DNA of 40,922 bases from an uncultured Mycoplasmatota bacterium (GCA_948469065.1 CAOKKL010000002.1:1-40922), one strand, 5' to 3'; counted from the stretch's first letter, positions 3,693-30,794 are shown. Notes: generated by a model from the sequence alone, not told the origin. Made by a program: numbers and translations.

Positions 3693-5006
3693 TTATGGAT
3701 TCAGTCTAGTTGGACCTCTATAAATAAATGTTGCTTCACGAATATTATCAATTCCTAACAAAAGCATTAATAAACGTTGAATTCCAATGGCAAATCCTCC
3801 ATGAGGCGGCATCCCATATTTGAAAAATTCTAAATAAAAATCTAAACTTTCTAGAGTAATCCCCTTTTCTATAATTTGATTTTTTAAAATATCCAACCGA
3901 TGTTCTCGTTGTGCACCTGTTGTAATTTCAATGCCTCGAAATAATAAATCATAACTGCACGTTTTTCCTTGCTCATTTAGCATATGATAAAATGGTCTGG
4001 CTGCAAAAGGAAATTCTGTGACAAAAATAAATTCTGTTCCAAATTCTTCTTTTGCGTACTTGCATAGTAAATTTTCTTCTTTTCTTTCAAAATCGTCTTC
4101 TTTTTCTCCAATATAATGATATTTTTCTTTTAAAATATTTTTTGCTTCTGAAAAAGAAATTCGTGCGAATGGTTTTTCTAAGTCTGTCAAATGGACTTTA
4201 AACTCTTTTTCAATATTACTTCCAAAGTTTTGATAAATTTTTTGAATGGCAAATTTAAGCCATGCTTCTTCAAAATCCATAATTTCTACATAATTTTGAA
4301 TCCACGATATTTCAATGTCAGCCATATTAATTTCGGTCGCATGATAACTAGTATGGGAATTTTCAGCCCGAAATGCTGGTCCAATTTCAAATACTTTATC
4401 AAATCCAGAAGCCATTGCCATTTGCTTATAAAATTGAGGTGATTGCGATAAATAGGCGGTTTTACCAAAGTATTCTAATGAAAAAGTTTCTGCACCACTT
4501 TCTGCTGCTGCACCACTAATTTTTGGAGAATGGATTTCTAGAAAATGATTTTGTATACAATATTCTCTTAAGCTATGTTCTAATAAAGTTGCGATTTGAA
4601 ATAATAAATGATTATCATTTCTTCTTAAATCTACAAATCGATAATCCAATCTTGTTTCTCTTAAACTGTTATCTTTTTTATTATAGTCAAAAGGCAGTTC
4701 AGAAGCACTTTCACTTGTTATGAAAATTTCATTAGGAATTAATTCCATTCCACTTAATTTTACATTGGGTGCTTCTTTTAAAATACCTTTTACTGTTATA
4801 GTAGATTCTAAAGAAACATTTTCTAAGAGGTCAATAAGCTTTGTATTTTCTGTTGTTTTCTCAATCGTTACTTGAAGTTTTCCAGTGCCATCTCTTAAAA
4901 CCAAAAACATTACATATGGTAGATCTCTTAATTTATCTAGAAATCCTTGAAACTCAATTTCTTTGTTATAATAATTTTTTAACTCTGAAACAAATATTTT
5001 TTTCAT
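3693..5006 (-). CDS. aspS: aspartate--tRNA ligase, short archaeal/type-2 form
   Basis: 437 aa, about 150 aa shorter than the bacterial type and lacking the insertion domain. OB fold at the N-terminus. Motifs FRAENSHTSYHATE and GGFAIGIQRLLMLLLGIDNIREATFIYRGPTRLNP. Confidence 0.85.
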   Translation of the reverse strand: MKKIFVSELKNYYNKEIEFQGFLDKLRDLPYVMFLVLRDGTGKLQVTIEKTTENTKLIDLLENVSLESTITVKGILKEAPNVKLSGMELIPNEIFITSESASELPFDYNKKDNSLRETRLDYRFVDLRRNDNHLLFQIATLLEHSLREYCIQNHFLEIHSPKISGAAAESGAETFSLEYFGKTAYLSQSPQFYKQMAMASGFDKVFEIGPAFRAENSHTSYHATEINMADIEISWIQNYVEIMDFEEAWLKFAIQKIYQNFGSNIEKEFKVHLTDLEKPFARISFSEAKNILKEKYHYIGEKEDDFERKEENLLCKYAKEEFGTEFIFVTEFPFAARPFYHMLNEQGKTCSYDLLFRGIEITTGAQREHRLDILKNQIIEKGITLESLDFYLEFFKYGMPPHGGFAIGIQRLLMLLLGIDNIREATFIYRGPTRLNP

Positions 5007-16367: not shown

Positions 16368-16740
16368 TTATAAATCATTTTTACTTTTTAAAAATTCTTT
16401 TAAAATTTTCATCAAAGCCCTTTTTTCAATTCGAGATACATAACTTCTAGAAATGCCTAATTCTTTTGCAATTTCTTTTTGTGTTTGCTCTTTTTCTAAA
16501 CAAAGGCCGTATCTTTTTTTTATAATTTCTTGTTCTCGCGGATTCAAGTCTTTTAAATAATTATTCAACAATTCTAAATTATGTTTTGTATGTAATGAAT
16601 CTGCAATATCGATTGAATTATCTTTAATAACATCAATTAAATTAATTTCATTTCCATCCTTATCATAACCAATCGAATCATTTAAACTAACATTATTGCC
16701 ATTTTTTTTATTTCCTCTAAAATACATTAAAATTTCATTT
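16368..16740 (-). CDS. sigK: sigK 3' segment (spoIIIC-equivalent): sigma regions 3-4 of sigma-K
   Basis: The translation from the junction, (N)EILMYFRGNKK...SLNDSIGYDKDGNEINLIDVIKD...QKEIAKELGISRSYVSRIEKRALMKILKEF, is collinear with the B. subtilis SigK C-terminal half. The MIPFQLVKTA start in the ORF track is element-derived and has no sigma homology. Confidence 0.9.
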
Positions 16741-18441
16741 GCTGTCTTCACCAGTTGGAAAGGTATCATCTTTTATATTTCTTGCACCTATAAAGTTAAT
16801 TGTAATATCCTCTCCATCCGTTGTTATAGAACTTACTAGGAGCTTTATTAAGTTTCTTTTGGTATTTAGGTCTAGATTATAAAATTCATTAAAATAGGTG
16901 TCTAAAACGTTTAATACAAGATCAGATGTATCTTTATCACTAATTTCATCATAGTTAGTATTGGTTAGATCTTTTATTTGCTTTTCAATCTTTATATTTT
17001 GTTCTTTTAAAGATTTAATTTCTTTAGAAACATCATCTAGCAGTTCAATATCTATATATTTAATTTTATCTAATAAAGAATTAATATCTTTTTCATTTTT
17101 TGAAAGAGATGATCTTAACGTTTTTAATTCTTCATTGTTTTTATATTCTTCTGTAAAAGTATTTTTAGAAATTTCTTTTAATGATTGATAAAATAGTGAA
17201 GTAGGATTAGCAAGTTCTTTTATTTTTTCCATTACCAAGTCATCTGCTTCCAATCCATTAATATTTTTACAATCACATTTTTGTTTTCTACTTTTTTCTT
17301 TTAACTCACACATATAATCAAATCTTCTTCTTCCGTCTTCACTAATGGTTTTGTTTTTTAATTTTGGACGCATGAAAGATCCACAATGAGAACATCTTAA
17401 AATCCCTGAAAGCAAAGCATTACTAGCAGATGGTTTTCTATAACGCATATCACTATTTTTAAGTAGTAGATCTTGAACTTCTACCCAGTCTTTACCTGTA
17501 ATGTTTCCTTTATGTTTTCCAATAGAGATGATCCAATCTTCCACATCTCTTTTAATAACAATTTTATTTTTTCCTTTGTGTTCAGTTTTATTATATACCA
17601 TTAAGCCATGACTTCCGTTAAAGTCTTTTTCTTCTGCGTAAATTTCTACATCAAACTTTTTAAAATATTCTAAAGTATCTTTATCAGCAATAGCATAAAC
17701 AGGATTCGTTAAAATATTTTTTAAAGCCCAACGTGTAAAATATTTACCATTTTTAGTTTTAATATCATTTTGAATTGTATAAGTTTCTAATTTTGTTAAC
17801 GATTTTAACTCTAACATTTTTTTAAATAGAGTAATCACGATCGGCATTTCTTCATTATCGGTTAATTTAAATAACTTTCTTTTTTTACCATCTATGGTTA
17901 TTTTTTCTATTTGTTCAGAATCAAAACCAGTGGGAGTGTTCCCACCAAGCCAACGTCCTGTTTTAGCAAGATCTATCATATTATCACGGATTCGTTCTGC
18001 AGTAGTATCTCTTTCTAATTGTGCAAAAACAGAACTCATAAACATCATAGCACGTCCACTAGGAGTTATACTTTCTATATTTTCGGTAGCTGATAAGAAT
18101 ACCACTCCGTAATTATCAAGCTCTGTTACTAAATTACTAAAATCTGTTACGTTACGACTAATTCGATCTAGTCTATAAAAAGCTATGACTTTGATTTTAT
18201 TGTTTCTTATATCTTTTAATAATCTTTGAAAATCAGGTCTATTCATATTATAACCTGTAAATCCCTCATCCTCATAAATAATAATATCATTTTCTAAATC
18301 AACATCAGGAAATTGAAAAGCTATTTTTTTCTTACACATTTCAATTTGATTCTTGGTGCTTTCTCCTTTCCCTGTATATTTTGATTTTCTAGAGTAGATT
18401 GCTATTTTACGATCATCTTTTTTCTTACTTGTACTTTGCAT
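16735..18441 (-). CDS. spoIVCA: large serine recombinase (SpoIVCA-like)
   Basis: 568 aa. Resolvase-type catalytic N-terminus (IAIYSRKSKYTGKGESTKNQ) and a recombinase domain. Zinc-ribbon cysteines (CSHCGS...YMCELKEKSRKQKCDC) and a long C-terminal coiled coil. The stop codon lies on the att core. Confidence 0.92.
   Translation of the reverse strand: MQSTSKKKDDRKIAIYSRKSKYTGKGESTKNQIEMCKKKIAFQFPDVDLENDIIIYEDEGFTGYNMNRPDFQRLLKDIRNNKIKVIAFYRLDRISRNVTDFSNLVTELDNYGVVFLSATENIESITPSGRAMMFMSSVFAQLERDTTAERIRDNMIDLAKTGRWLGGNTPTGFDSEQIEKITIDGKKRKLFKLTDNEEMPIVITLFKKMLELKSLTKLETYTIQNDIKTKNGKYFTRWALKNILTNPVYAIADKDTLEYFKKFDVEIYAEEKDFNGSHGLMVYNKTEHKGKNKIVIKRDVEDWIISIGKHKGNITGKDWVEVQDLLLKNSDMRYRKPSASNALLSGILRCSHCGSFMRPKLKNKTISEDGRRRFDYMCELKEKSRKQKCDCKNINGLEADDLVMEKIKELANPTSLFYQSLKEISKNTFTEEYKNNEELKTLRSSLSKNEKDINSLLDKIKYIDIELLDDVSKEIKSLKEQNIKIEKQIKDLTNTNYDEISDKDTSDLVLNVLDTYFNEFYNLDLNTKRNLIKLLVSSITTDGEDITINFIGARNIKDDTFPTGEDSK
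16736..16740. repeat. att core copy (CATTT plus strand / AAATG minus strand) at the sigK 3'-segment junction
   Basis: Same 5-mer, in the same codon phase (xxA AAT Gxx), as at 28331..28335. The flanking bases differ on both sides, so the core is exactly 5 bp. Confidence 0.8.
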
Positions 18442-18478
18442 ATTCCAAAATCCTTTCCAACACGTATTAATTTAATAT

Positions 18479-18487
18479 AGTATATCA
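18479..18487 (-). promoter_or_regulatory. candidate extended -10 (TGATATACT) upstream of the recombinase gene
   Basis: The minus strand reads TGATATACT about 38 nt upstream of the ATG, with an AAAGGA RBS in between. No CATA-type mother-cell -10 element is visible. Confidence 0.3.
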
Positions 18488-18520
18488 CAAATTTAAAATA
18501 ATAGATATAGTTAAACAAAA

Positions 18521-18540
18521 TAAAAAAGACTTTGAAAGTC
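18521..18540 (-). terminator. weak intrinsic terminator after the envelope-protein operon
   Basis: Minus strand GACTT-TCA-AAGTC hairpin followed by a T6 run, 5 nt after the lipoprotein stop. Confidence 0.4.
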
Positions 18541-18544
18541 AATT

Positions 18545-19525
18545 TTATTCTAAGTTTGATATTTTCCATGTATTATTATCTTTTTTGATTGTTGCGTTTA
18601 ATACTATAAATTTTGTTTCTGTACCCCCAGTACAAAGAAGTCCAGCAATACATTTTGCGTCAATTTCATAATCCATACTTACTTCTATTTTTAACTCATT
18701 ATCACTTATATAATCCCTTATAGAATATTTTAAAGAATCATCTTTTAAATTTTTAAATGTATAACTCTTATGTGAATCTTGCCAACTCTTTTTAAATTTA
18801 TTAGTTGGTAATTCAAAATCATTATTTATAAAATACTCACTAATTGCACTTTTATTATTATCAATAAATCCAACCTGTATTATATCTTTAAATATAGGTT
18901 TAATAATTTCATCTAACTCCTTTACAAATTCCTCTTTAAAGTTGGAAGTATTAAGGTCTTCATAGATAAATTCATCATAATTTCTATCACTTTCAAATTT
19001 CCAATCTTTTAATAATTCATTTGTTGCTAAATATTGATAGTAAACATTTTTAAAAGCATTAAATTTATATGTAGCTTTGTTATCATCTATTCTAGGATCT
19101 GATAGCTCTATACCATCTACACTAACTTTTGATGATTTATATGCTGTAATAGTTCTTTCTTCGTATAGATTATCTATATAAACTTTATTTGACTTTTTAT
19201 CTACTTCTATATTCATAGAATCATTTTCATTAATGGTTAATTTATAATAAATTTTATTATCATCTTCACTTGATTTCATTGGTTTGCATGATGTAATTGT
19301 TTTTTTATTTTCTTTCATTTTTTTAACTAGTAATTCTTTAGCTTCCTCTTTTTTATTAGTAAGCAATTTTTCATTAGGAAAATAGGCAATATCAATCATA
19401 TCTCCGTAATTTTCTTTAATTAATATATCACAATATTGTTCTGCAACTTTATCTGTCTTATTTCCACAACCTGTTAACATGAAAGCCATTAAAATGGCTA
19501 AACTTAAATATTTTATTTTCTTCAT
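18545..19525 (-). CDS. lipoprotein of unknown function (element cargo, gene 4 of 4)
   Basis: 326 aa. Signal peptide with a lipobox (LAILMAFMLTGCGNK). The rest is a hydrophilic mixed alpha/beta region. Confidence 0.75.
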   Translation of the reverse strand: MKKIKYLSLAILMAFMLTGCGNKTDKVAEQYCDILIKENYGDMIDIAYFPNEKLLTNKKEEAKELLVKKMKENKKTITSCKPMKSSEDDNKIYYKLTINENDSMNIEVDKKSNKVYIDNLYEERTITAYKSSKVSVDGIELSDPRIDDNKATYKFNAFKNVYYQYLATNELLKDWKFESDRNYDEFIYEDLNTSNFKEEFVKELDEIIKPIFKDIIQVGFIDNNKSAISEYFINNDFELPTNKFKKSWQDSHKSYTFKNLKDDSLKYSIRDYISDNELKIEVSMDYEIDAKCIAGLLCTGGTETKFIVLNATIKKDNNTWKISNLE

Positions 19526-19545
19526 TTTTTTTAATTCCTTTCTTA

Positions 19546-20154
19546 TTATAAGCTAGATGTATTAATTGTACGATCTGAATTTGTACTAATTAATTGGTAT
19601 ACATTTAAGGTAGCATAGTCTTTATCATAACTATCTACAAATAACATTTCAGTAGTTGACTTATCACAATCATCTTTACACCACATGCTAGACACCTTTA
19701 TCTTTGTTTTTTCTCCTGATTTTAAGCTTATGGTTTCTTTTCCCCTAATTGCAAATGATCTCCCATTAGAATCTTTTAAGAAGAGTATATAACCAATATT
19801 ATCGATGGTTTCTTTTGATGTATTTTTTATAGTAAATTCGTATTCCACATCTCCAGCAAGTGTTTTATTATTATTTACTTTATTTTCTTTATGTTTTAAT
19901 TTAATTCCACTAACAGAAACTTTATCAAAATTTTTCACTTCGTTAAATGTATAATAATTGTATTCTGCTGATGTAGGATGTACTACATTAGCCAAAACGA
20001 CTTTTTCACTACTGCCACTACTTAATAGAGTAATGCCAGCAATTCCGATAATTGCAATAGCTCCACCAATTACAACTTTTTTTACTCCAATTTTTATAAC
20101 TTGATCTTTTATTTTTTTTACAATTTCTTTTCCTTTTTCTAATAAATTATCCAT
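19546..20154 (-). CDS. membrane-anchored small beta-rich extracytoplasmic protein (element cargo, gene 3 of 4)
   Basis: 202 aa. One N-terminal TM helix (VVIGGAIAIIGIAGITLL) followed by a ~140-aa beta-sandwich-like region (EYEFTIKNTSKETIDNIGYILFLKD...). A resemblance to DUF4352 is only a guess. Confidence 0.65.
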   Translation of the reverse strand: MDNLLEKGKEIVKKIKDQVIKIGVKKVVIGGAIAIIGIAGITLLSSGSSEKVVLANVVHPTSAEYNYYTFNEVKNFDKVSVSGIKLKHKENKVNNNKTLAGDVEYEFTIKNTSKETIDNIGYILFLKDSNGRSFAIRGKETISLKSGEKTKIKVSSMWCKDDCDKSTTEMLFVDSYDKDYATLNVYQLISTNSDRTINTSSL

Positions 20155-20178
20155 ATTATTTTACCTCATTTCCTTTTT

Positions 20179-22194
20179 TTAATCTTTTTGATAAGCACTT
20201 TCACATGATATGTCAGTGCATTTCATCACCCTAATTTTAGATTGATCTAAATTAGAAATACCTGTCAATCCTTGTATTTTACCTTTATCATCAACATTAG
20301 TGGGATATATATAATATCCACTTTCAATGTCATAGCCAGTTTCAGTCTTTCCTGTACCAGTAATTATATAATAAGATCCATCATCCTGTTTTTTAACACT
20401 TTGGTATTTTTGTGTACTCCATTTTGTAGTAAATGTTCCATCTTTACTTATAGTTAAAGAACTATTTGAATAAGTACCAACATAACAAGAAAAATCTCCA
20501 TTTAATAATTGTTCCTCACATTTATCTTTTATTTTTCCCTCTAATGTTATAATCGGTATTTTCTTTTCATAGGTAGCTTCTGCTTTAGCTATTTCTAATT
20601 TCCATATATGAAAGTTAGCATATAATCCAGCACTTACAAAAGTACCTATTTCCATTTTCCCGTCTAGTTCATCTTGATTATTAGATTTTATATAATTTAG
20701 TTGTCCATCTGTATATAAACCAACTGGAGCTTTTATACCTGCTTCCATTACTCCCAAAAAACTAATATTAACTTTTGGATCTAAACCAATTTTTGCTTCT
20801 GCTTTTCCTAAAATATCGTAAGAACTATCTTTAACACTTAAATCAAAATCTTTATAGAATCCTTTATTGTTATGTCCGAATAGAATATTGATATTACTTT
20901 TCATAGTTATAGATGATTTTAAAGCAAGTTCTAACTCTTTTAATAAATCTAATTCAAGATTCACAGTAAGTCCAAAAATAGGAGTAGGAATTATATGTTT
21001 TCCAAGTGTATCTTCTTCTTTAGAAGAATCCATTTTTAAATCTTCTAATTTTTCACGAGCAAGTGTTATATTTACTTCTTCATTATCATTAATTTCACTT
21101 TCAAATAATTTAAAGTCATCATCAATAGGATTAATATTAAAATCTGTATTTATATCTATATCAAGACTAGCACCTACATCATGTTTAAAGAAAGTTATCT
21201 CACTATGAGCTTTTAATCTAATAATAAATTCAACATCTAATTTCATATCATGATTTTCTAAAGTATCCTTAAAAATTGATTTTTCACCATGATTCAAGTT
21301 AATACTAACTAAAACTTTAGCACTTCCATCTTTTTGAGATTCTACTTTAACATTAAAAATATCTTCGGCATAAACATTAGGAATAATATTATCTAATATT
21401 CCATCTCTTGCTATGGCAACTTTAATATAGTCTTTTAATTCCTCATTGGTTATAAAATCATTTAATTTTAGATTAAACTCTCCATATACATCTAATTCTT
21501 TAAATAATTCCTCTAGAGTAGGAGCATTTGTTTTAATAGTATATAGATCATTTTCTTTATTTATATTATTTACCTTAAAAGCTATTACTTGATTTTCATT
21601 TTGATAATATAAAATATCATCTTTTTTAAATTCTTTATTAGATGTAATTGTATAATAATTGTCATCAATTTTAACACTTGTAATAATATCTTTATCTACT
21701 TTAATAACATTATCATTTAATACTTGCGTATTTGAATTTGGTCTAACGATTGTAAAATACAAAGTCTTAATATCTTTTAATTTTTCATCTGTGAAAGTTG
21801 CATTCTCTAAAGTGATTTTATATGTTTTTCCTGCTTCATAATTTTTATTAGAAGCTATTACATAATCATTTTTCTTTTTACTTATTTTTGTTTGAATTTC
21901 TTGTTCTTCTTCATCAACAATTTTATATTTTATTTCTTCATCTTGACTAGATACATTAAATTTAATATCAGCATTAGCTTTCATTAAATAATAATCTCCA
22001 TTTTCATATTGTACTAAATAATCACTAGAATCCGTTATTTTTAATGTTTCTCCAACAATAAATTCATCATTTTTATTATTTACCAAATAGTAGATCAGAC
22101 CACCAGCAATAAGTAATATTAAAATAATAATAGGAATAACAAATTTTTTATTTTTCATGTTTTTAAGCACATGGTTTCTAACTTGCTTTTTCAT
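20179..22194 (-). CDS. large membrane-anchored extracytoplasmic protein of unknown function (element cargo, gene 2 of 4)
   Basis: 671 aa. N-terminal TM helix (FVIPIIILILLIAGGLIYYLV) followed by about 630 aa of beta-rich sequence. The C-terminal Cys-containing module is CEEQLLNGDFSCY...CTDISCES. Confidence 0.7.
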   Translation of the reverse strand: MKKQVRNHVLKNMKNKKFVIPIIILILLIAGGLIYYLVNNKNDEFIVGETLKITDSSDYLVQYENGDYYLMKANADIKFNVSSQDEEIKYKIVDEEEQEIQTKISKKKNDYVIASNKNYEAGKTYKITLENATFTDEKLKDIKTLYFTIVRPNSNTQVLNDNVIKVDKDIITSVKIDDNYYTITSNKEFKKDDILYYQNENQVIAFKVNNINKENDLYTIKTNAPTLEELFKELDVYGEFNLKLNDFITNEELKDYIKVAIARDGILDNIIPNVYAEDIFNVKVESQKDGSAKVLVSINLNHGEKSIFKDTLENHDMKLDVEFIIRLKAHSEITFFKHDVGASLDIDINTDFNINPIDDDFKLFESEINDNEEVNITLAREKLEDLKMDSSKEEDTLGKHIIPTPIFGLTVNLELDLLKELELALKSSITMKSNINILFGHNNKGFYKDFDLSVKDSSYDILGKAEAKIGLDPKVNISFLGVMEAGIKAPVGLYTDGQLNYIKSNNQDELDGKMEIGTFVSAGLYANFHIWKLEIAKAEATYEKKIPIITLEGKIKDKCEEQLLNGDFSCYVGTYSNSSLTISKDGTFTTKWSTQKYQSVKKQDDGSYYIITGTGKTETGYDIESGYYIYPTNVDDKGKIQGLTGISNLDQSKIRVMKCTDISCESAYQKD

Positions 22195-23159
22195 TAGTAT
22201 TTTCTCCTACGTCTTTCTTCATCTATATATTTCTGTACGTCATTCATACTTTTAGCTATTGCTTTAAAACTTTCATTATTTTCTTTTTCTCTTTGTTCTC
22301 GTTCTTGACGTTCTCTTTGTTTTTCTCTTGCTTCCTTTTCTAAAATTTTCTTTTTTTCTAATTCTAGCTCATATAATCTTTGACGTTCCAATTCTTGACT
22401 ACGTTCATCTATATATAAATTTATACAATCTGTTAGATTATCACGTCTATTCGTTTCTAAATATTTAATAAATCTCTCTATTGCGTCTTGATTTTGATAA
22501 TCATTATGTAATTCTTTTTTTGTGATTTTTTCTCTTTTTTTGCTATTTTGATCAAGATTTTTTTCTAATTCTTCAATTAAAGTTGTAAGTTCATCTTTTC
22601 TTTGTTCATATATTTTTTTATTTTCAGCAATCACATTATCTTTAGTAGCCATATATCTAATATAGTCTATAAGATACCAAATAAGACATATAGGCAAACA
22701 TACTATTAATGATAAAAACATTCCAAATAAACAAGCTATTACAGAATTCAAATAATAATTAATAGGTAAAATTTTAAATATATTTAATAAGATTAAAATT
22801 CCAACTAGAGATAATATTGTTTTTAATATGCTATCAATTTTCTTATAGATGAAAATAGCTATAATGGATACTAATATAGATATTGGTACGTATAAGGTCA
22901 TTGGTACGTTATAACCTAAAGGATGGAATAACTTTAATACTAGAATTAAAGTAAGTATAGATATTAATATATAAACAATTTTTAAGATAAGATTATTACC
23001 TATGAATTCAAAAATTCTATTAAATCTATGTACTTTTGGCTTTAGTAAAGCTAATTCTTTTGATAAATTAGATTTTTGATCTTGCCAGTTATCTCTTTCA
23101 ATCACTAATTCCTTTAATGATTTTAAATTTTTTATTAGTTTTTCTTTGGTATTCCCCAT
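22194..23159 (-). CDS. polytopic membrane protein with coiled-coil/charged cytoplasmic tails (element cargo, gene 1 of 4)
   Basis: Start moved to ATG 23159 (MGNTKEK), behind an AGGGAGTG RBS. There are 4-5 hydrophobic helices in the middle. The C-terminal tail is KE/R-rich (EKEAREKQRERQEREQREKEN...ERRRRKY). Its stop overlaps the next start (TAATG). Confidence 0.65.
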   Translation of the reverse strand: MGNTKEKLIKNLKSLKELVIERDNWQDQKSNLSKELALLKPKVHRFNRIFEFIGNNLILKIVYILISILTLILVLKLFHPLGYNVPMTLYVPISILVSIIAIFIYKKIDSILKTILSLVGILILLNIFKILPINYYLNSVIACLFGMFLSLIVCLPICLIWYLIDYIRYMATKDNVIAENKKIYEQRKDELTTLIEELEKNLDQNSKKREKITKKELHNDYQNQDAIERFIKYLETNRRDNLTDCINLYIDERSQELERQRLYELELEKKKILEKEAREKQRERQEREQREKENNESFKAIAKSMNDVQKYIDEERRRRKY

Positions 23160-23311
23160 AAATAAAAGCCACACTCCCTAACAATAAATATTTTCTATTT
23201 AAGTATAGCATATTTTTGTTAAAAAAGACACCTATTATAGAACTTTTGCCTATAATATACATATTAAAAACATCTACTATAAATGAGAAAATATATATAG
23301 GTGGTGATAAT

Positions 23312-23581
23312 ATGAATTTTAGCCCTGAAGATGACAGATATATTTACGAATTAGTCAGTAAGAATATAAAGTATTTTAGACTTCATAATAATAGTAAATA
23401 TAGCTCGTATGGGAAAATGACACAAGAACAGCTTGCAGAAAAATGTGATTTAAGTCATAGTCTAATTAGTAACATAGAGTCTTCTAAAGTTCAACAATCT
23501 TTTAGTATCGCCGTACTATATAGAATCTCTCGTGTTTTAGAAATAGACATTAAAGAGTTTTTTGTTGATCGTAAACTTTAA
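23312..23581 (+). CDS. XRE-family HTH regulator
   Basis: Start taken at ATG 23312 (MNFSPEDD), behind an AGGTGGTGA RBS. The HTH_3-like core is MTQEQLAEKCDLSHSLISNIES. It is divergent from the cargo operon. Confidence 0.75.
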   Translation: MNFSPEDDRYIYELVSKNIKYFRLHNNSKYSSYGKMTQEQLAEKCDLSHSLISNIESSKVQQSFSIAVLYRISRVLEIDIKEFFVDRKL

Positions 23582-23631
23582 TATTTATTAATGTTTATAT
23601 AGAGTATGATTTTAAATTTTGTCGAAACTAC

Positions 23632-23675
23632 AAAAAAAGATATGGATTCAATAATTAGATTCCATATCTTTTTAA
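23632..23675 (+). terminator. intrinsic terminator (A-run / 9-13 bp stem / T-run)
   Basis: AAAAAAGATATGGA...TCCATATCTTTTT. The core stem is 23638..23646 paired with 23661..23669. Confidence 0.6.
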
Positions 23676-23805
23676 ATATACCAAAACTTTCTTAATATAT
23701 ACCTTTTTTATAAATTTATTTACCATTATAGGTTATGTTATCATTTATTTGTCAACGAAATACTAGTTAATTGTTGAAAAATAAAAATTGAAAGGACATG
23801 GTATT

Positions 23806-24252
23806 ATGAGTAGAATGATTTCTAAAGAACAACAAATAGAAGAAGCAAAAGAAAGATTAAAGAGACTATCTAAAAAATTCAATTTAAACCCTGTTATCTT
23901 AAATGTTTTTGAGCAAGGAAAAATAAAGGTATTTAGAAATAATGAATTGATTGATCTTGATTCAATGCCTGAATACAAAAAAATGGTTGCTGATTTTGAA
24001 GAAGAGTATAATCACGTTGTCTTTTATTGTATAGAAGAAAAATATAGTTTTGGTAGATGCTTATCTTTGTTATGTGTAGGAAATATAAAAATATATTGGA
24101 AAACAGAGAGATTGTTCCATTATGGATATGATTTTAAATATGAAGATATATATATGATTTCTACATATACATATAATTTAGATGATCCTGATTGCTCTGA
24201 ATTTGGAGATATTCGTATTGCTAGTAAAAATGGTTGTTTGATTAGAATATAG
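23806..24252 (+). CDS. hypothetical protein (element cargo)
   Basis: Start taken at ATG 23806 (MSRMISKEQ), behind a GAAAGGA RBS. 148 aa, soluble, no recognised motif. Confidence 0.6.
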   Translation: MSRMISKEQQIEEAKERLKRLSKKFNLNPVILNVFEQGKIKVFRNNELIDLDSMPEYKKMVADFEEEYNHVVFYCIEEKYSFGRCLSLLCVGNIKIYWKTERLFHYGYDFKYEDIYMISTYTYNLDDPDCSEFGDIRIASKNGCLIRI

Positions 24253-24253
24253 T

Positions 24254-24290
24254 AAAAAATCATAGATTTCAAAAGTCTATGATTTTTTTT
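24254..24290. terminator. bidirectional intrinsic terminator between convergent genes
   Basis: AAAAAATCATAGA-TTTCAAAAG-TCTATGATTTTTTTT. An A-run and a T-run flank the 8-bp core stem (24259..24266 paired with 24276..24283). Confidence 0.65.
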
Positions 24291-24299
24291 GATCAATTA

Positions 24300-24890
24300 T
24301 TAATCTATTTTGGTGCAATTATATTTTGCTTGTTTAGGAGATGGAGATAGAAATAATTTAGCATATTTTTCTTTTAATTGTTCAAGTTCAAAACTAAATG
24401 CTTCTTGTGATATTTCTCCATTTTCTTTTTTTCGTTCTAATAATTTTTTATGATGAAAGTATTCTAGTAAATATTCATTTATAGAAAAATTTAATACTAG
24501 TAATGGATCTTCTTCATTATCTGCTAGTGGGAATTCAATATTAGAAATTTGTTCAAATGCTAATTCAGACATTATTTCATTTTCATTCATATAATCACTT
24601 ATTCCAAATAAATAATCCAAACTAACTTCATGTTTTTTAGCTATTTTCAAAGCTTTATCTAATGTTAACCCACAACTACCTTTTTCAATAGCTCTTAATG
24701 TTTCATCACTAAAACCATCAATTTCATCTAAAAATTCACCAACACTTAACCCTAATTTTTTTCGTAAATCTCTCACTCGGTTTTTAGAAATATTCTTTAC
24801 TTCATGATTTTGGCTATCGACATTTACCTTTTTATCCTCATCATCACTAAATATTTCTTGTATGCTTTCTGTCCTTTTAACCTCTAACAT
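24300..24890 (-). CDS. XRE-family HTH regulator with extra N- and C-terminal regions (candidate element repressor)
   Basis: Start taken at ATG 24890 (MLEVKRT), behind a GAGAGGT RBS. The HTH_3-like core is LGLSVGEFLDEIDGFSDETLRAIEKG...VSLDYLFG. It is divergent from rep. Confidence 0.75.
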   Translation of the reverse strand: MLEVKRTESIQEIFSDDEDKKVNVDSQNHEVKNISKNRVRDLRKKLGLSVGEFLDEIDGFSDETLRAIEKGSCGLTLDKALKIAKKHEVSLDYLFGISDYMNENEIMSELAFEQISNIEFPLADNEEDPLLVLNFSINEYLLEYFHHKKLLERKKENGEISQEAFSFELEQLKEKYAKLFLSPSPKQAKYNCTKID

Positions 24891-24964
24891 ATAATTACCT
24901 CTCATTTAAATATAAATAACAAAACTTTTTCAATAAGTACCTATTTTTACAAATATATTTACCA

Positions 24965-25011
24965 TATAACTTTATTGTAAAATATAGTTATACCTTATAG
25001 CATTTATTGTA
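24965..25011 (+). promoter_or_regulatory. inverted repeat plus two direct repeats upstream of rep (candidate operator or origin)
   Basis: Inverted repeat TATAACT (24965..24971) / AGTTATA (24986..24992) with a 14-nt loop. TTTATTGTA occurs twice (24971..24979 and 25003..25011), 32 bp apart. Confidence 0.3.
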
Positions 25012-25047
25012 TCAAATGTAGCAATATTTAAAAATTTTTGTAAAGGA

Positions 25048-26079
25048 GTGATCATTATAGCTAAACAAGTTAAAAAAGATAGTCAAGCAAGAAGCTATCA
25101 AATTACACAGAATAATCCTAGCAAATATAATATTACTAGAGAAAGTTTTAAGGAAACTATATTAAAATTTAAACCTATTTATTATTGTATTTCGGAAGAA
25201 ATAGGAATTAAAGAAAAAACTCCACATTACCATGCTTATTTTAAGTGTTCTAGTCCAGTAAGATTCTCGACTTGTAAAAAAAGATTTAAATATGCCCATA
25301 TAGAACAAGCTCTTGGAAGTGCAACTGATAATCGTAATTATCTTATGAAAACAGATAAATACATAGATAAAAATGAAACTTTAATTGATTTTGAAGAAGC
25401 TGGAGAGATCCCACAAACTACAAAAGAAAAAAGGTTATCGGAAAAAGCAGAAGTGCTTCAAAAAATAAAGGATAGGAAAACCAATTTAGAAATTATAGAA
25501 GAAAATGAAAATTTATTATTTCATTTAAAAGATATAGAGAATATTAGACAAGAATATCTAAAAGAAAAATATTCAACTGAATTTAGGGATGTTTGCTGTA
25601 CCTTTATATACGGAGCTACAGAAACCTATAAGACAACTTATGTATATTCCAAATATAATGCAAAAGATATTTTTAGGATCTATAATTATCAAAATTTAAA
25701 TTCATTATGGGATGGTTATACGGGACAATCTGTAATCCTATTTGATGAATATAAAGGTCAAATACCTATTGAATTAATGCTGATATTAACGGATCGATTT
25801 CCAGTGCTAAATTTAAACGCAAGGTACAATAATAAAATAGCCATGTACAGTCAAATTTATTATTGCACGAACGAATGTTTTGATAATATTTATGCTTATG
25901 AGAAAGTCATGCACCCTGCAACATATAAAGCATGGGAAAGAAGAATCCATAATATATACGAATTTAGGAAAAATTCTGATGGATCTCCTAATGTTATAGT
26001 CCATAAAGAAACGAAAAAGGAGGGTTTTTCTAATGAACGAACCAAAGAAAATAAAGAAGAAAAAGATCAGACTATCTGA
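25048..26079 (+). CDS. replication initiator with HUH endonuclease + SF3-helicase-like layout
   Basis: Motif I YQITQNNP, motif II PHYHAYF (HUH at 25225..25233), motif III NRNYLMKTDK (YxxK). These are followed by a P-loop-like GATETYKT, Walker B VILFDEY and motif C YYCTNE. The exact start is uncertain because the GTG overlaps the RBS. Confidence 0.8.
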   Translation: MIIIAKQVKKDSQARSYQITQNNPSKYNITRESFKETILKFKPIYYCISEEIGIKEKTPHYHAYFKCSSPVRFSTCKKRFKYAHIEQALGSATDNRNYLMKTDKYIDKNETLIDFEEAGEIPQTTKEKRLSEKAEVLQKIKDRKTNLEIIEENENLLFHLKDIENIRQEYLKEKYSTEFRDVCCTFIYGATETYKTTYVYSKYNAKDIFRIYNYQNLNSLWDGYTGQSVILFDEYKGQIPIELMLILTDRFPVLNLNARYNNKIAMYSQIYYCTNECFDNIYAYEKVMHPATYKAWERRIHNIYEFRKNSDGSPNVIVHKETKKEGFSNERTKENKEEKDQTI

Positions 26080-27583
26080 TATATATAGAAAAATAGAAAC
26101 AAAATATTTACAGGTATATCACAATTGGAGACTCTATATTGTAAAGGTTATTATATTGTTCTTAACAATATTTCTTTTACTAATATTTAATTTAAATTTG
26201 AATAACATACCTTATTTTAATAAAATCAATTTAAACTTTCCATTAATAGATAATCTAATAAAAAAGAAAATAAACTTATTTTATGTTGTTATTTATATAC
26301 TATCAACGATTCCGATTATTGTGATATGTAAATCATTTTTTAAATCAATAAAATATGAAAATAAAGATGAACAATTAGCAAAAGCATTAATGCCTAATGC
26401 TAGTGAAGAAAAAAGAGAAGAATTATCTTCTAAAACAATTGTAATGTATCCTAATCCTTATAATAAAGATAATGAATATTGGATGCTTTATAAAAATTGT
26501 GTTCCTTATAATGTTATTTTTGATAAAAAGGAACTAATACAAAATTTTTTAGATGGTCAATATGTAAAAGGAACTAAAAATTATGGTTCTAACAAAGCAT
26601 TAATTAATTTGAGCAAAACAGATCCATCCGATCCTAAACCAATTAATTGGGATGATAAATTTCTTATTTCTTATAAAGGTGGTAGTCCAAAATTTAATCT
26701 TGGAATTACCAATTTTGATGAACCATACTATTGGGACACGAAAAAATTAATACACGAAAAACTTGGTGGAACCACAGGTGCTGGGAAAACAATAGTTCAA
26801 AAATCAATTTGCTACCAAGCACTTATGCAAAATTGTGAGCTTTTTATATATGATGGGAAACAGATCGATTATACAGGAATATGGAAAAGATTAAAAAATT
26901 GCACGATTGTTAATAGTATGAAAGGATTTCAAAATATGGTTAAAATGGTATATGAAATTCATTTGATGAGAAATAAAGAGTTTAAATTTCCATTTTATAA
27001 TATAGATAATTTTAATAGATTTAAAAAACCAATTCAACCAAGAAAGCATATTTTTCTTGTTATAGAAGAAGCTGCTGATATATTTGATATTGATGTTAAA
27101 ACCTTATCAAAAGAGGAAAAAAGTGAGTATTTAAATTGTATAGAAATTTTAAAAGAAATAGCTCGTAAAGGACGTGCAACAGGATGTCATCTGTGCGTAA
27201 ATAGTCAACGTCTTTCAGCTGATATTATACCACCTCAAATAAATTCATGCCTCAAATTCAAATTTTGTGGCTTTGCTGATAATATTTTATCTAATATTAT
27301 GGTAGAAAATACCGACGCACACGATTTATTAAAAGATGGTGTTGCTGGTATGTTTGTAGATGGAAACCATAATGTCATACAAACCTATTATATAGATAGT
27401 GAAATAGAACAAGCTATTTTAAAACCATTTGAAATTACAAGAAAAACAATGTCTGATATTCATGCAAGATATGATATTGGAGAAGAAGAACTTGAAATTG
27501 ACGGAGATAAATTTGTAAAAGATTATGTAGAAGATAAAGAAGCAATAGATCCTAATTATTTTAAAGTTAGGAAAGATAATTAG
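26033..27583 (+). CDS. membrane-anchored FtsK/SpoIIIE-family DNA translocase (TraB/TcpA/coupling-protein-like)
   Basis: 516 aa. GGAGGG RBS. Two N-terminal TM helices. Walker A GGTTGAGKT, Walker B FLVIEEAADIF, and the FtsK motif GRATGCHLCVNSQRLSADIIPPQI. Confidence 0.85.
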   Translation: MNEPKKIKKKKIRLSDIYRKIETKYLQVYHNWRLYIVKVIILFLTIFLLLIFNLNLNNIPYFNKINLNFPLIDNLIKKKINLFYVVIYILSTIPIIVICKSFFKSIKYENKDEQLAKALMPNASEEKREELSSKTIVMYPNPYNKDNEYWMLYKNCVPYNVIFDKKELIQNFLDGQYVKGTKNYGSNKALINLSKTDPSDPKPINWDDKFLISYKGGSPKFNLGITNFDEPYYWDTKKLIHEKLGGTTGAGKTIVQKSICYQALMQNCELFIYDGKQIDYTGIWKRLKNCTIVNSMKGFQNMVKMVYEIHLMRNKEFKFPFYNIDNFNRFKKPIQPRKHIFLVIEEAADIFDIDVKTLSKEEKSEYLNCIEILKEIARKGRATGCHLCVNSQRLSADIIPPQINSCLKFKFCGFADNILSNIMVENTDAHDLLKDGVAGMFVDGNHNVIQTYYIDSEIEQAILKPFEITRKTMSDIHARYDIGEEELEIDGDKFVKDYVEDKEAIDPNYFKVRKDN

Positions 27584-27629
27584 AATTTACCTTAATAAAA
27601 TTCATATATTTTATTGAGGGGGTGTTTGC

Positions 27630-27827
27630 TTGAAAGTCTACGTCAATTTACCACAAACACCTGAGGAAAGGAAAGAATTAGCAAATGGCGTAGCCAGATT
27701 CCATGCTACACTTATGCTAGAAAAAATTAAAAAATTAAATATCAATGATTCTTCTAAAGAAAAAGTTTTAAATTTAGTTTTAGATCATTTTAAAGAAGAA
27801 TCAAAAAAAGAATGTATAAGTGATTAG
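27630..27827 (+). CDS. small hypothetical protein (65 aa)
   Basis: TTG start behind a GAGGGGG RBS. Predicted helical. No recognised motif. Confidence 0.5.
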   Translation: MKVYVNLPQTPEERKELANGVARFHATLMLEKIKKLNINDSSKEKVLNLVLDHFKEESKKECISD

Positions 27828-28090
27828 CTCATACATTTTTTTAGTTTATTATATTTTTCACGTGAAATATGACAATTCCCATTTTCCCATCTACGAACAG
27901 AAGTATCTGAAACTTGGAGCATATCTGCAAATCTTACTAAAGACAGATTCATCTGTTTCCTTATGGATTTAATTTTTTCACAAGGATCATTTAAAAGAAA
28001 ATTTATATAATCATCATTAATTATCAGTTTATCTTCGATTTCAAGTTCTTTGATAACAGATTCTAATAATTTTATATCTACTAGCTTCAT
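27824..28090 (-). CDS. XRE-family HTH protein; its frame stays open upstream to 28243 and encodes a second HTH without a start codon
   Basis: The 88-aa ORF carries the HTH MNLSLVRFADMLQVSDTSVRRWENG. The 51 in-frame codons upstream read NTRRKLKPINEFSTIGEQIKYYRVLQDIKQEDLCKKLGVTRGALFHIENRD, with no ATG/GTG/TTG/CTG. Confidence 0.6.
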   Translation of the reverse strand: MKLVDIKLLESVIKELEIEDKLIINDDYINFLLNDPCEKIKSIRKQMNLSLVRFADMLQVSDTSVRRWENGNCHISREKYNKLKKCMS

Positions 28091-28330
28091 ATCTCTATTT
28101 TCTATATGAAATAATGCTCCTCGTGTAACTCCTAGCTTCTTGCATAAATCTTCTTGTTTTATATCTTGTAATACACGATAATACTTTATTTGTTCTCCAA
28201 TCGTGCTAAACTCATTAATTGGCTTTAGTTTTCTTCTAGTGTTTTAATGGTTATTTCTGTTTGGATGGTATCTCTTAATCTGTAAAAAAGATCACTAATT
28301 CCTACACAACTTTCCAATAGGTGTATATTG

Positions 28331-28335
28331 CATTT
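28331..28335. repeat. att core copy (CATTT plus strand / AAATG minus strand) at the sigK 5'-segment junction
   Basis: Identical to 16736..16740 and in the same codon phase of sigK. Confidence 0.8.
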
Positions 28336-28652
28336 TCAATACATCTTGCTACATAAGTTGTAATTCTTGTGGCTTTTTCTTTATTATAAGAGTCGATTCC
28401 TTTAATGAGACCAATGGTACCAATACTAATTAAATCATCGGTATCTGTATCTTTTGTTTCAAATTTTTTAACGATGTGTGCTACTAATCTTAAATTATGT
28501 TCAATCAATTTATTTCGTGCTGTTTGGTTTCCTGCTAACATTTCATTAATACATTTTTCCTCTTCTTCTAAACTAAGTGGATCTGGAAAAACTTGATTTG
28601 AATAAGATCCCGTAAAGAAAAAAAGACTTTTGATTAATTGAATTAAAAACAT
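28331..28652 (-). CDS. sigK: sigK 5' segment (spoIVCB-equivalent): pro-sequence and sigma region 2
   Basis: MFLIQLIKSLFFFTGSYSNQVFPDPLS (hydrophobic pro-sequence) followed by ARNKLIEHNLRLVAHIVKKFE...DLISIGTIGLIKGIDSY...TYVARCIEN. After the core, the ORF runs into 9 unrelated codons (AIYTYWKVV) and a TAG. Confidence 0.9.
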
Positions 28653-28695
28653 ATTACACTCCCTATTAAAAGTTATGTAATAGTATTTAAAAAAT

Positions 28696-29841
28696 TCATT
28701 GAATTTCTTTTCTTAATTTTCTAGATGGAATGACGATTCGTTTTTCACCGAAATAATAGGTGGCATTTTCTAAATGATTTTCATCAAAATAAGAGTCCCC
28801 TGAAAAAATGCTTGGTGATATGCCATTGTTCTTTTCTGTAGAACAAAGAAACAATTCAGTAAATTCATCTGTTTTTCCAATGAATACGCCTGAATTTTCG
28901 CTTTTTGGAATATTAGTTTTTTTTACACTGCAATTTTGAAATCTTGTATAGCCTGGAACAGTAATATATTTGGTATTGGGTACTCTTTTTTCTCCTAATA
29001 TAGCTCCTATATTTTCTTTTTCAGAATTTGGAAAAGTTAGATTGGAAATATGGATGTTTTCACATAAAAAATTGGCATAACTTGAGATCGACGAAATTAA
29101 TCCAATGGAAGTATCGTCATTATTTTCTAATTCTACCTGATCTATATTATATCCGTTTCCAAATAAGAAAAGGGTTCCATAAAAACCATCCAAACAAACG
29201 GGGTTTATTTTGGTTCGTACAATATTTTTTGTTAAGAAGGCAACAACCTTATGTTTGGGATATTTTGAAATAAGATTTAAGTCGTGAAAATGGTGAATGG
29301 GTAGTATCTGGTCTACTTCAACCAAGGAAGCATTTTTAAAAACAACTCCTTGACGAATCCATGAAGATATCACTTTTCTTTTTCCATAAATTTTATGATA
29401 ATTTCCATCTATAATAGCACCTTGGTAAAATGGAGAACATTTTCTTATTAAAATAAAATCATTTTTTAATTTTAATTTTGTTTTAGGTAGTAATACTTTT
29501 GGCAATTGATCAAAATCTTGATCCTTAGATAGAAAAAAAGTATCATCTTGAACTTGATAAGAAATTTCATAATTATTTTGAAAAATGGAAATAGAGCTAG
29601 CATTTATATTCGAAAAAAGAAAATTATTTCCAGTGGTACTTTTTGCAACTACTTGAAATTTATAAAATCGTTTTGGATTCACAAACACTACATATATCAT
29701 GCCTTGAAATTTATTTAAATCAATTGCTGAAATCGTAATATTAGAAACAATGTCATAAATTTTAATCATAACTTTCTCTTTTTTTTCAATTGTTTTTAAT
29801 TTATCAAAATCTTGCGCTGTTTTTATTTCAATTATTCTCAT
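28696..29841 (-). CDS. hypothetical protein
   Basis: 381 aa. AGAGGGA RBS. No signal peptide and no motif I recognise. Immediately upstream of sigK on the same strand. Confidence 0.6.
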   Translation of the reverse strand: MRIIEIKTAQDFDKLKTIEKKEKVMIKIYDIVSNITISAIDLNKFQGMIYVVFVNPKRFYKFQVVAKSTTGNNFLFSNINASSISIFQNNYEISYQVQDDTFFLSKDQDFDQLPKVLLPKTKLKLKNDFILIRKCSPFYQGAIIDGNYHKIYGKRKVISSWIRQGVVFKNASLVEVDQILPIHHFHDLNLISKYPKHKVVAFLTKNIVRTKINPVCLDGFYGTLFLFGNGYNIDQVELENNDDTSIGLISSISSYANFLCENIHISNLTFPNSEKENIGAILGEKRVPNTKYITVPGYTRFQNCSVKKTNIPKSENSGVFIGKTDEFTELFLCSTEKNNGISPSIFSGDSYFDENHLENATYYFGEKRIVIPSRKLRKEIQ

Positions 29842-29906
29842 TTTAATCCCTCTTTATAACACTATATCAAAGAAAAAGCAAAAAAAGGAAAAAAAATAAC
29901 ATTACA

Positions 29907-30680
29907 CTATTTTTTTGATAAATTTTTCTTAATTAAAATACCAAGAATAGAAAAAGAACTGAAAGCTAATAAAAAATAAAGAGAAAGATTTACTGTTGAT
30001 GTTTGAACATTATTTGGTGTATCATTAAATGCAATAAGAAAAGGAGAAAGTTCAGTAACAGAAATATCAATTTTTCCATTTTCTACTTTTTTTATAAATT
30101 CTTCTTCCATACCGTCTTTTTTTCTATGTAAGACATAAGCATTCATTCCATTGTATTGTTCTTGAAAACTAAATGTGATTGTCATGCCATTTTCTATATT
30201 TCCGCTTTCAAGTTGAATTTCGTAGCCTCCAAAAAGATGAAAATATCCTTTTAATTTTGCTTTTTCAAACATACTTTGATAGATAGGACTATTTTTTTCT
30301 AATTGTGAAGCATTTAATTTTACATTTAAATGATTAGAAATAGAAATATGATCCATTACTTTCGTCATATTTTCTTTCTTTAGTATAACTCTGGCAAAAC
30401 ATTCTTCTTCTGTATTACATAATTCTCCACCAAGTAAAATTTTATAAAAAGTCCCATTGTTTTGGATTTTTTTATCAAATGCCGAAAAGGAATTGTCAGA
30501 TAATTTTATAACATTTAATATGGAGTATTGATCCCAAATTTCTTTTATTTTTGGCAAAGCATATTGGATATAAGCTTCGTCTGTATCTATCAAGTAATCT
30601 GATATGATGATAGTATGAAATGTAAAATCATAACCTTCCACAATATCATAGATTACTCCATTTTTAGCAATTGCGACCAT
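29907..30680 (-). CDS. hypothetical protein with a C-terminal TM anchor; possibly the 3' part of a disrupted larger gene
   Basis: 257 aa. C-terminal hydrophobic helix LSLYFLLAFSSFSILGILI followed by KKNLSKK. It is in the same frame as ORF 30795..31061, separated by one TAG plus 38 sense codons. Confidence 0.55.
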   Translation of the reverse strand: MVAIAKNGVIYDIVEGYDFTFHTIIISDYLIDTDEAYIQYALPKIKEIWDQYSILNVIKLSDNSFSAFDKKIQNNGTFYKILLGGELCNTEEECFARVILKKENMTKVMDHISISNHLNVKLNASQLEKNSPIYQSMFEKAKLKGYFHLFGGYEIQLESGNIENGMTITFSFQEQYNGMNAYVLHRKKDGMEEEFIKKVENGKIDISVTELSPFLIAFNDTPNNVQTSTVNLSLYFLLAFSSFSILGILIKKNLSKK

Positions 30681-30794
30681 TATTCCTTGAGCCGTATAAT
30701 CGCCATCTCCTCCACCAGAAAAGCTAGAGAAATATAATGTTAAAGAATTGTCATTGAGATTTTGTTTTACGAATTCTTTGTATTGGTTGATAGA

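Follow-up and report, generated by a model that had tools for sequence, protein, structure and literature searches.

sigK of an uncultured Mycoplasmatota bacterium is split by an 11,595-bp skin-like element resembling an integrative mobilizable element

We analyzed a 40,922-nt stretch of DNA from an uncultured Mycoplasmatota bacterium (GCA_948469065.1 CAOKKL010000002.1:1-40922), here called the window, whose coordinates are used throughout. In this window the sigK gene is interrupted by an intervening element of 11,595 bp (16740..28334), and the two halves of the gene join to a full-length SigK. A first-pass annotation had proposed that sigK is split by a skin-like element, and a natural allele in which the site is empty and the gene is whole bears this out. 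The element probably represents an integrated, non-phage integrative mobilizable element (IME) or rolling-circle plasmid with a sigK-specific serine recombinase, and it would be excised in the mother cell as skin elements are.

Split sigK and its natural alleles

The 5' fragment of sigK (28333..28652, minus strand) encodes the pro-sequence and regions 1.2-2.4 and spans codons 1-106 plus two bases, the first two, for Asn107. The truncated open reading frame (ORF) to which it belongs (28302..28652, minus strand) runs to ...TYVARCIEN, followed by 9 unrelated codons and a TAG at 28302. The 3' fragment (16368..16739, minus strand) provides the remainder of Asn107, regions 3-4, and the stop codon, and its ORF (16368..16769, minus strand) starts with 10 unrelated codons before continuing as NEILMYFRG...SRSYVSRIEKRALMKI. 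The translations thus agree to the base with the ORFs and break points of the first-pass annotation. Deletion of 16741..28335, as that annotation proposed, yields a 690-nt ORF of 229 amino acids with the CIENEILM motif, and removal of the 11,595 bp at 16740..28334 fuses the same ORFs in frame as a 229-residue pro-sigma-K. The ends of the element are ambiguous by the 2-bp crossover described below. The G+C content of the element is 25.4%, compared with about 27.5% in the flanks.

The joined 229-residue product was aligned to sigma factor profiles. It matched the NCBIfam SigK model NF004471 end to end, with 317.5 bits (cut-off 252) over residues 3-227, and the SigE models scored about 100 bits lower. 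Another model, TIGR02846, gave 296.7 bits, just under its cut-off of 298.65. The product has sigma-70 regions 2 and 4, and together with the NF004471 score this identifies it as a pro-sigma-K. The N-terminal residues aligned to the SigK profile include a leader, which is the predicted pro-sequence. There is no second sigma-like gene elsewhere in the window.

The repaired gene exists in nature. The exact 229-residue protein (P0121, 100% identity) is encoded on the Logan contig SRR26637664_5383 (L090), where the gene order is a 381-residue ORF, sigK, yqeG, yqeH, GNAT, and mutL. Aligned to the window, L090 shows 100.000% identity over 16740-11921 (4820 bp) and 99.956% over 30588-28327 (2262 bp), and the two alignments abut at the predicted repaired junction GATGTATTGAAAATGAAATTTTAATGTATTTTAG, which is attB. 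The 5' fragment in the window is 100% identical to this intact allele, as is the 3' fragment, which is also 100% identical in another contig (L099). Since the flanks match the window and meet at the junction, the same chromosome occurs with and without the insert, and the boundaries of the element are exact. The junction expected from the in-frame repair was therefore found base for base in an intact allele.

The comparison was extended to relatives in a scan with one genome per species. Uninterrupted sigK spanning nearly all 229 residues (shortest match, residues 12-227) was found at 80 loci with 59-83% identity, in uncultured gut metagenome-assembled genomes (MAGs) labelled 'Bacilli', 'Tenericutes', and Erysipelotrichaceae. 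The element is absent from all of these loci as it is from L090, and none of the 80 has any of its genes at the sigK site. Both ends of the integrated form recur independently. The recombinase-side end is present in L099 (DRR813934), which is 100% identical over the recombinase gene, the sigK 3' piece, and the ORF at 18545..19525. The opposite end, with the exact truncated sigK 5' ORF, recurs in four assemblies (L105-L108).

The serine recombinase, its attachment sites, and the element family

The gene adjoining the sigK 3' fragment (16735..18441, minus strand) encodes a large serine recombinase of 568 amino acids. Its translation has the catalytic motif YSRKS and the domain set of large serine recombinases, namely Resolvase (PF00239, 1.6e-31), Recombinase (PF07508, 9e-14), and Zn_ribbon_recom (PF13408, 9e-12). 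Related solved structures match the catalytic domain only. The last 8 codons of the gene lie within the left arm of attP. The ORF itself lacks a stop; its TGA (16737-16735) is located beyond the crossover, in sigK, which donates it (AA|TGAAAT). In the excised circle, the recombinase ORF would run in frame through attP into the gene for a double helix-turn-helix (HTH) regulator, giving a predicted fusion of about 738 amino acids. This read-through is free of stop codons in four subtypes (L093, L096, L100-L102, and L105). The recombinase C-terminal FPTG and the regulator N-terminal LES, both conserved, are the two attachment-site arms read as protein. We had considered the conserved peptide past the junction as a C-terminal tail of the recombinase; this was dropped, as L100-L108 show that the double-HTH protein begins with it.

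Upstream of the recombinase gene (18479..18540, minus strand), a terminator-like hairpin GACTTTCAAAGTC with a T-run (18540-18522) is followed by an extended -10 element of the sigma-A type, TGTGATATACT (18489-18479). The assignment is by consensus match, and the TGnTAnAAT/TATACT element is kept at the same place in L096, L093, and L098. As in C. difficile, the recombinase seems to be served by a sigma-A-type promoter of its own. A generic promoter scan found fewer sites than in shuffled sequences.

The attachment sites can be defined at both ends. attL (28310..28357, minus strand) joins the attB half from sigK to the right arm of attP, TGCAATATACACCTATTGGAAAG (28332-28310), across the crossover AA at 28334-28333; L105-L108 have the same junction, and homologous arms are found in L095, L096, and L100-L104. 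In attR (16716..16762, minus strand), the left arm of attP, CTTTCCAACTGGTGAAGACAGCA (16762-16740), precedes the crossover AA (16739-16738) and the sigK half. The reconstructed attP, CTTTCCAACTGGTGAAGACAGCA-AA-TGCAATATACACCTATTGGAAAG (GGTGAAGACAGCAAATGCAATATACACCTATTGG), is an imperfect palindrome of 23+2+23 bp. Its arms are complementary at 17 of 23 positions, a match reached by a fraction of 1e-4 of random windows from the element. Such an imperfect palindrome of about 50 bp around a 2-bp crossover shared with attB is the arrangement of large serine integrases. The first-pass annotation had placed AAATG at both break points, and this string is present there, within AAATG.AAT shared at 8 of 9 bases. 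The actual crossover is narrower. In hosts with AAC as the Asn codon, attR reads GCAAACGA / GACAGCAAACGA, so the exchange lies to the left of that base, at the AA dinucleotide (28334-28333 / 16739-16738). Conservative recombination at the AA common to attL and attR removes the 11,595 bp and restores the pro-sigma-K gene.

The attB site comprises 40-50 bp of sigK with the conserved codons ...ARCIEN|EILM.... Across 62 intact sigK genes, conservation is at least 90% at most of 51 positions, which explains a wide host range. We also observed a site of another kind in L098 (JGI 3300042611, a 1926-bp contig). In the final ~130 bases, a recombinase gene with 58% identity continues through an attP-like palindrome, TTCCTACAGGAGAGGCTTGCA-TT-TACAAGAGCCACTTGTCGGAA, which is uninterrupted, and the sequence beyond is homologous to the attL-proximal region of the window. 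This site may be an excised or unintegrated form, and its central dinucleotide, TT instead of AA, suggests a different target.

Two genes recur across the family beside the recombinase. A protein of 57-65 amino acids, 65 in the window (27630..27827, plus strand), is besides the recombinase the only gene in all five family types with a readable region, including the 4.6-kb mini-element described below. A word-based homolog search found 10 close relatives. Its model is a confident two-helix hairpin (predicted local distance difference test score, pLDDT, of 83), with no match in the PDB better than E=3 and no homology or fold match to any known directionality factor. We regard it as the best candidate for the recombination directionality factor. 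The second recurring gene encodes the double-HTH_3 regulator (27824..28317, minus strand), which starts with a TTG inside the attP right arm and is frameshifted in the window; across the family the protein has 164-174 amino acids. In L100-L104 its ATG overlaps the stop of the truncated sigK ORF (ACATGATGG). In L105, L106, and L108 it is an intact 165-codon ORF from a TTG 16 nt before the truncated sigK stop, and L107 ends inside the gene. This arrangement leaves the double-HTH gene no room for a promoter of its own after integration, so its transcription must come from the sigK side.

Much of the remaining gene content looks plasmid-like. The plus-strand gene at 25048..26079 encodes a putative HUH rolling-circle Rep with a superfamily-3 helicase-like domain (CRESS-type). 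By eye we recognized the HUH motifs I-III (YQITQNN, HYH, and YLMK), a Walker A-like GATETYKT, VILFDE, and CTN; the Pfam scores are marginal (PF02407, 24.9 bits with a gathering threshold of 26; PF00910, 22.2 bits), and tblastn gave a distant match to the RepA of Bifidobacterium p4M (1e-15). The next gene (26033..27583, plus strand) encodes an FtsK/SpoIIIE-family ATPase with N-terminal transmembrane (TM) helices, a TcpA-like coupling protein or DNA translocase (PF01580, 24.7 bits with a gathering threshold of 24; phrog_1358, 2.4e-34). No mating-pore gene of the VirB4 or type IV secretion families is among the element ORFs. A coupling protein of the TcpA type without mating-pore genes of its own is among the features expected of an IME. 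The combination of Rep, TcpA, and a serine integrase in elements that lack mating-pore genes is the signature of Firmicutes IMEs such as those of streptococci (PMC5357655), and most p4M-like Reps are encoded by integrated elements that have no virion genes (PMC6668415). Judged by its genes, the element resembles an IME or an integrated rolling-circle plasmid and is non-phage.

A prophage remnant was ruled out. None of the element ORFs matched phage structural, packaging, or lysis families in PHROG, where only the regulators and the FtsK-like protein have matches, and the nearest phage integrases are 37-42% identical to the recombinase (23.8% for that of PhiS63). The gene content is thus not prophage-derived, and the classical term 'defective prophage' does not apply. 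A defence island was also ruled out, as PADLOC gave generic HTH and P-loop matches only.

The remaining genes include two further regulators, making three of the Xre type in all. An Xre/HTH_3 regulator lies at 23216..23581 (plus strand), where the real start is probably the ATG at 23312, giving 89 amino acids as in relatives. It is followed by a conserved protein of 154 amino acids with no assigned function (23788..24252, plus strand). A repressor-like HTH_3 protein of 201 amino acids is divergent from rep (24300..24905, minus strand). The AT-rich intergenic region between them (24906-25047) has short hairpins that could be an operator or origin; neither an origin of transfer (oriT) nor a replication origin was identified in the element. 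Between the recombinase and these genes lies a variable cargo block (18545..23174, minus strand) of four co-directional, envelope-associated genes with no informative family match, at which other family members carry different genes. It encodes a lipoprotein (18545..19525), a single-TM protein (19546..20154), an N-terminally anchored protein of 671 amino acids (20179..22194), and a multi-TM/coiled-coil protein (22194..23174). The N-terminal part of the 671-residue protein weakly matches the MAG1140 family (1.7e-6, below cut-off), named by NCBI after a Mycoplasma protein; the protein is otherwise an orphan.

The recombinase belongs to a family that is bound to one codon of sigK. We inspected the best 120 of hundreds of recombinase relatives (53-97% identical). 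Among these, 89 of 120 end in ...K and a stop (the TGA of sigK) and 17 of 120 read through as KRNxNV (host codon AAC), a ratio that mirrors the 53:9 ratio of AAT to AAC in intact sigK genes; a few are fused or frameshifted into sigK. By their ends, about 110 of the best 120 sit at the sigK site. In related elements with a readable recombinase end, the gene runs straight into the sigK 3' fragment in 16 of 16, and every junction sequence that we inspected lies at the codon IEN|EIL. Both sigK halves stay intact in all family members inspected. Where both ends are visible, the elements measure 4,629 bp, ~9,615 bp, and 11,452 bp. Their cargo varies. One member has Fic, uracil-DNA glycosylase (UDG), and Ham1 genes, another has a VirD4-like ATPase, an M48 peptidase, and a tyrosine integrase, and in the L100 type three unknown genes take the place of the four in the window.

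The family has also spread between hosts. Between the window and L081, L087, and L088, identity is ~93% in the recombinase gene, whereas it is 67-78% in the adjoining sigK 3' DNA and 66-77% in divIVA. This identity step at the junction indicates horizontal movement between hosts, and by these comparisons the family has moved between host species.

Two relatives are of interest in their own right. The smallest, in L095 (GCA_036305765.1, 7039-11668), is a 4.6-kb mini-element at the same sigK codon with Ham1-like, UDG, and Fic genes, three small proteins, and the recombinase; close by, but not part of it, are a ToxN toxin and another Fic gene. In an Oscillospiraceae MAG (L093 and L094, ~2176-3990), sigK appears to be interrupted twice. 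There, a second, different serine recombinase gene (562 codons) ends inside ...DLISIG..., and a middle sigK piece of ~48 codons (residues ~59-106) precedes the usual IEN|EIL insertion; the first piece lies beyond the fetched locus.

The relatives of the host (L036 and L101) are labelled Tenericutes or 'Mycoplasmatota incertae sedis' (Candidatus Fimihabitans) by NCBI, yet they carry full-length sigK. SpoIIP lies beside the same arrangement at one relative locus. These are hints that a reduced uncultured gut lineage retains sporulation genes.

The chromosomal neighbourhood of sigK is as follows. One flank has two class II aminoacyl-tRNA synthetase genes, miaA, mutL, yqeH, and yqeG, and the other has divIVA, sepF, relA, smc, and rnc. 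Only 43 nt separate the sigK ATG from the preceding gene, so the sigK promoter must overlap that gene. Between divIVA and sigK, ~2.7 kb (28653-31411) contain two ORFs without family matches (28696..29841 and 29907..30680). In the window, L090, and L091, sigK points the same way as divIVA/sepF and yqeG; in most relatives it is inverted, divergent from yqeG. An assembly artefact or a product of the recombinase was ruled out as the source of this inversion (versus L001, L088, and L100-L102), since L090 and L091 share the orientation of the window. Farther away (320-5006), the two synthetase genes are adjacent paralogs of the Asp/Asn/Lys type (2250..3623 and 3693..5006) beside a HerA/DUF87-like ATPase gene (320..2164).

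Proposed excision in the mother cell and rival explanations

We propose that the recombinase uses the sigK codons ...ARCIEN|EILM... as attB and that the element would be excised in the terminally differentiated mother cell, like the skin elements known from B. subtilis and C. difficile. Excision there would let sigma-K be made, and the forespore would keep the integrated copy. The recombinase would be expressed from its own sigma-A-type promoter. Directionality would be set by a separately controlled factor, for which the 65-residue protein is the best candidate. Transcription of the double-HTH gene from the sigK side could be the route that couples the regulation of the element to sigK transcription.

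Several points weigh against this proposal. We infer mother-cell excision from analogy and family-wide patterns, and the assemblies are static. A stretch of 41 kb is too short to show sporulation of the host or a second sigK. The promoters expected of a sporulation-controlled element were not recognized, as upstream of the recombinase gene and of the 65-residue protein gene there are only weak, non-conserved CATA-type -10 matches to sigma-E/sigma-K promoters in AT-rich DNA. The circle junction predicted in the first-pass annotation failed to appear; the exact junction and two degenerate attP patterns had 0 matches in IMG/VR and the JGI metagenomes, although the IMG/VR negative is uninformative, as IMG/VR lacks even the attR of the element. 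The empty allele L090 comes from a different sample, possibly from a strain into which the element never inserted. Since the flanks match that allele at 100%, the insertion may be very recent, and intact sigK halves would then be no evidence of selection. In the window, the double-HTH gene is frameshifted by a 4-bp deletion at ~28239-28240 (minus strand), where L105-L108 read ATTAAAACAAATACTAG and the window reads ATTAAAACACTAG. This deletion could be a real mutation, possibly affecting excision control, or an assembly error. The Pfam scores of Rep and the FtsK-like protein are at or just below their gathering thresholds.

The same observations could reflect a purely selfish IME or plasmid. 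Such an element would use the conserved sigK only as a safe attB that is widely available, and would excise by its own induction and transfer programme, consisting of the repressor (24300..24905) and then the operon of rep, ftsK, and the 65-residue protein gene. Occupied cells would be asporogenous or would sporulate after stochastic excision, which would amount to a heritable on/off switch of sporulation. This fits the sigma-A-type look of the recombinase promoter, the place of the candidate directionality factor gene at the end of the rep-ftsK operon, which lies under a divergent Xre repressor, the lack of a recognized sporulation-type promoter, the clear horizontal movement between hosts, and the occupied and empty alleles on identical chromosomes. 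However, about 110 of the 120 best homologs occupying one sigK site across diverged hosts would be hard to sustain if spores were abolished in spore-dependent gut anaerobes. All experimentally tested sigK-intervening elements excise during sporulation (PMC5025042, PMC6957869, PMC5595907), and the double-HTH gene is placed immediately after the sigK 5' fragment. On balance we consider a purely selfish element unlikely.

A dead relic is another explanation, in which sigma-K is not needed or is supplied by another copy, the split gene is decaying, and the in-frame repair is the footprint of a recent insertion. The insertion does look recent from the flanks identical to the empty allele, the double-HTH gene is already frameshifted, and the relatives are filed near the Mycoplasmatota, a reduced-genome group. 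Against this, both sigK halves are free of lesions and identical to the intact allele, and the split halves are intact in all family members inspected. SigK is full-length in more than 80 related genomes at 59-83% identity, and the relative locus with SpoIIP has the same arrangement. Decay of this kind is therefore very unlikely. The source is an uncultured organism, and repeated mobile elements often cause misassembly, so a mobile element could also have been chimerically joined into a chromosomal contig. This would have to account for attR at 100% identity in the independent sample L099, attL in the four independent assemblies L105-L108, both flanks being one syntenic locus that is contiguous in L090, and the same architecture in several dozen independent contigs of related elements. 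We give an assembly artefact practically no credence.

Skin-like excision of an integrated, non-phage IME or plasmid in the mother cell remains the explanation that we favor. It may be carried one step further, to a family that acts as a reciprocal gene-splitting switch and reads host development without a sporulation promoter of its own. sigK would donate the stop codon of the recombinase, and the circle would make the ~738-residue fusion. The regulator would be expressed only when the sigK promoter fires in the mother cell, and the element would replicate and spread by its Rep and FtsK-like genes from a doomed donor as the spore keeps a copy. We offer this extension as speculation that is quite unlikely to hold in full.

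Relation to known systems

The window provides a base-exact, naturally validated sigK-intervening element in an uncultured low-GC gut lineage of Bacilli, and these gut organisms probably keep the late sporulation programme. The integrase, attB/attP, and the short candidate directionality factor could serve as a recombination tool. The sigK target is among the most conserved DNA of spore formers and could mark sporulation-linked rearrangements in metagenomes.

Skin elements have been described from B. subtilis, C. difficile, C. tetani, and C. perfringens. A survey by Galperin et al. (2022) described 15 genomes with skin elements of 2.6-48 kb with unrelated cargo, which share only a SpoIVCA-like recombinase at the edge, 'usually immediately upstream of spoIIIC' (bioRxiv 10.1101/2022.02.25.481979). 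The window element agrees with these in the split of sigK into spoIVCB-like and spoIIIC-like parts, in its size, and in the recombinase at the edge upstream of the sigK 3' piece. The surveyed genomes are from cultured organisms and a (pro)phage origin was inferred, whereas the window element has plasmid/IME cargo in an uncultured gut lineage, and its recombinase clade is traced over several dozen metagenomic contigs at one codon. The first-pass annotation had called the element small and very different in gene content. The absence of phage structural genes and the Rep/FtsK-type module uphold this, but the novelty was overstated, as small skin elements with unrelated cargo are already catalogued.

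A similar layout is seen in skinCd of C. difficile 630 (14.6 kb; CD1231 and CD1234), which is likewise small with a recombinase co-directional with sigK, and whose CD1231 promoter is constitutive and of the sigma-A type, as is the putative one of the window recombinase (PMC5025042). Excision of skinCd needs a small separate directionality factor without database homologs, which is controlled by sigma-E (PMC5025042). In contrast, skinCd has a different insertion site in sigK (PMC3442830) and is described as prophage-like (PMC5025042), and the C. difficile sigma-K has no pro-sequence, whereas the N-terminus of the window sigma-K includes a leader that aligns to pro-sigma-K. For CD1234, control by sigma-E and SpoIIID is known from experiments; the window element is known from sequence alone. 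In skinBs of B. subtilis (SpoIVCA and Skr), a large serine recombinase also rejoins the halves of a pro-sigma-K gene at a short identical core, and a small directionality factor is required (PMC6957869). However, skinBs is a 48-kb defective prophage whose spoIVCA lies beside the 5' fragment and opposite to sigK (PMC3442830), whereas the window recombinase lies beside the 3' fragment and is co-directional. spoIVCA and skr are expressed from a sigma-E promoter.

Comparable non-phage systems are found outside sigK. The gin element of Bacillus cereus ATCC 10987, explicitly not a prophage, likewise interrupts a mother-cell gene, gerE; a serine recombinase and a small factor excise it, and conjugation-linked spread has been suspected (PMC5595907). 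Unlike the window element, gin targets gerE and has no Rep or FtsK module. Streptococcal IMEs similarly combine an integrase (often serine), a HUH Rep (PF02407, or Rep with a PF00910 helicase), and an FtsK-like TcpA without type IV secretion genes (PMC5357655), and the integrated p4M-like 'pCRESS' plasmids are site-specifically integrated without virion genes (PMC6668415). None of these IMEs or plasmids is reported to target a sporulation gene. The gene order also differs, with rep before ftsK in the window and tcpA upstream of the relaxase in streptococcal IMEs, and the window Rep is predicted from its sequence. The phages PhiS63 of Clostridium perfringens and MMB025 of Alicyclobacillus are active mobile elements, too, with sigK as their attB and with precise excision (PMC3442830, PMC13141910), as proposed here. 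In contrast to the window element, they are complete tailed phages (33.6 kb and 105 kb), and their sites differ (nt 427 with a 10-nt core for PhiS63; a TCTC core for MMB025). The PhiS63 integrase is 23.8% identical to the window recombinase.

The phenomenon is thus already known, and the gain is incremental. What is added to these systems is the plasmid/IME cargo, the recent horizontal spread, a defined sigK-specific integrase clade with its attachment sites, and a host lineage filed under the Mycoplasmatota. At least one lineage of skin-like elements appears to be not a decayed prophage but a horizontally mobile, plasmid- or IME-like element with exchangeable cargo.

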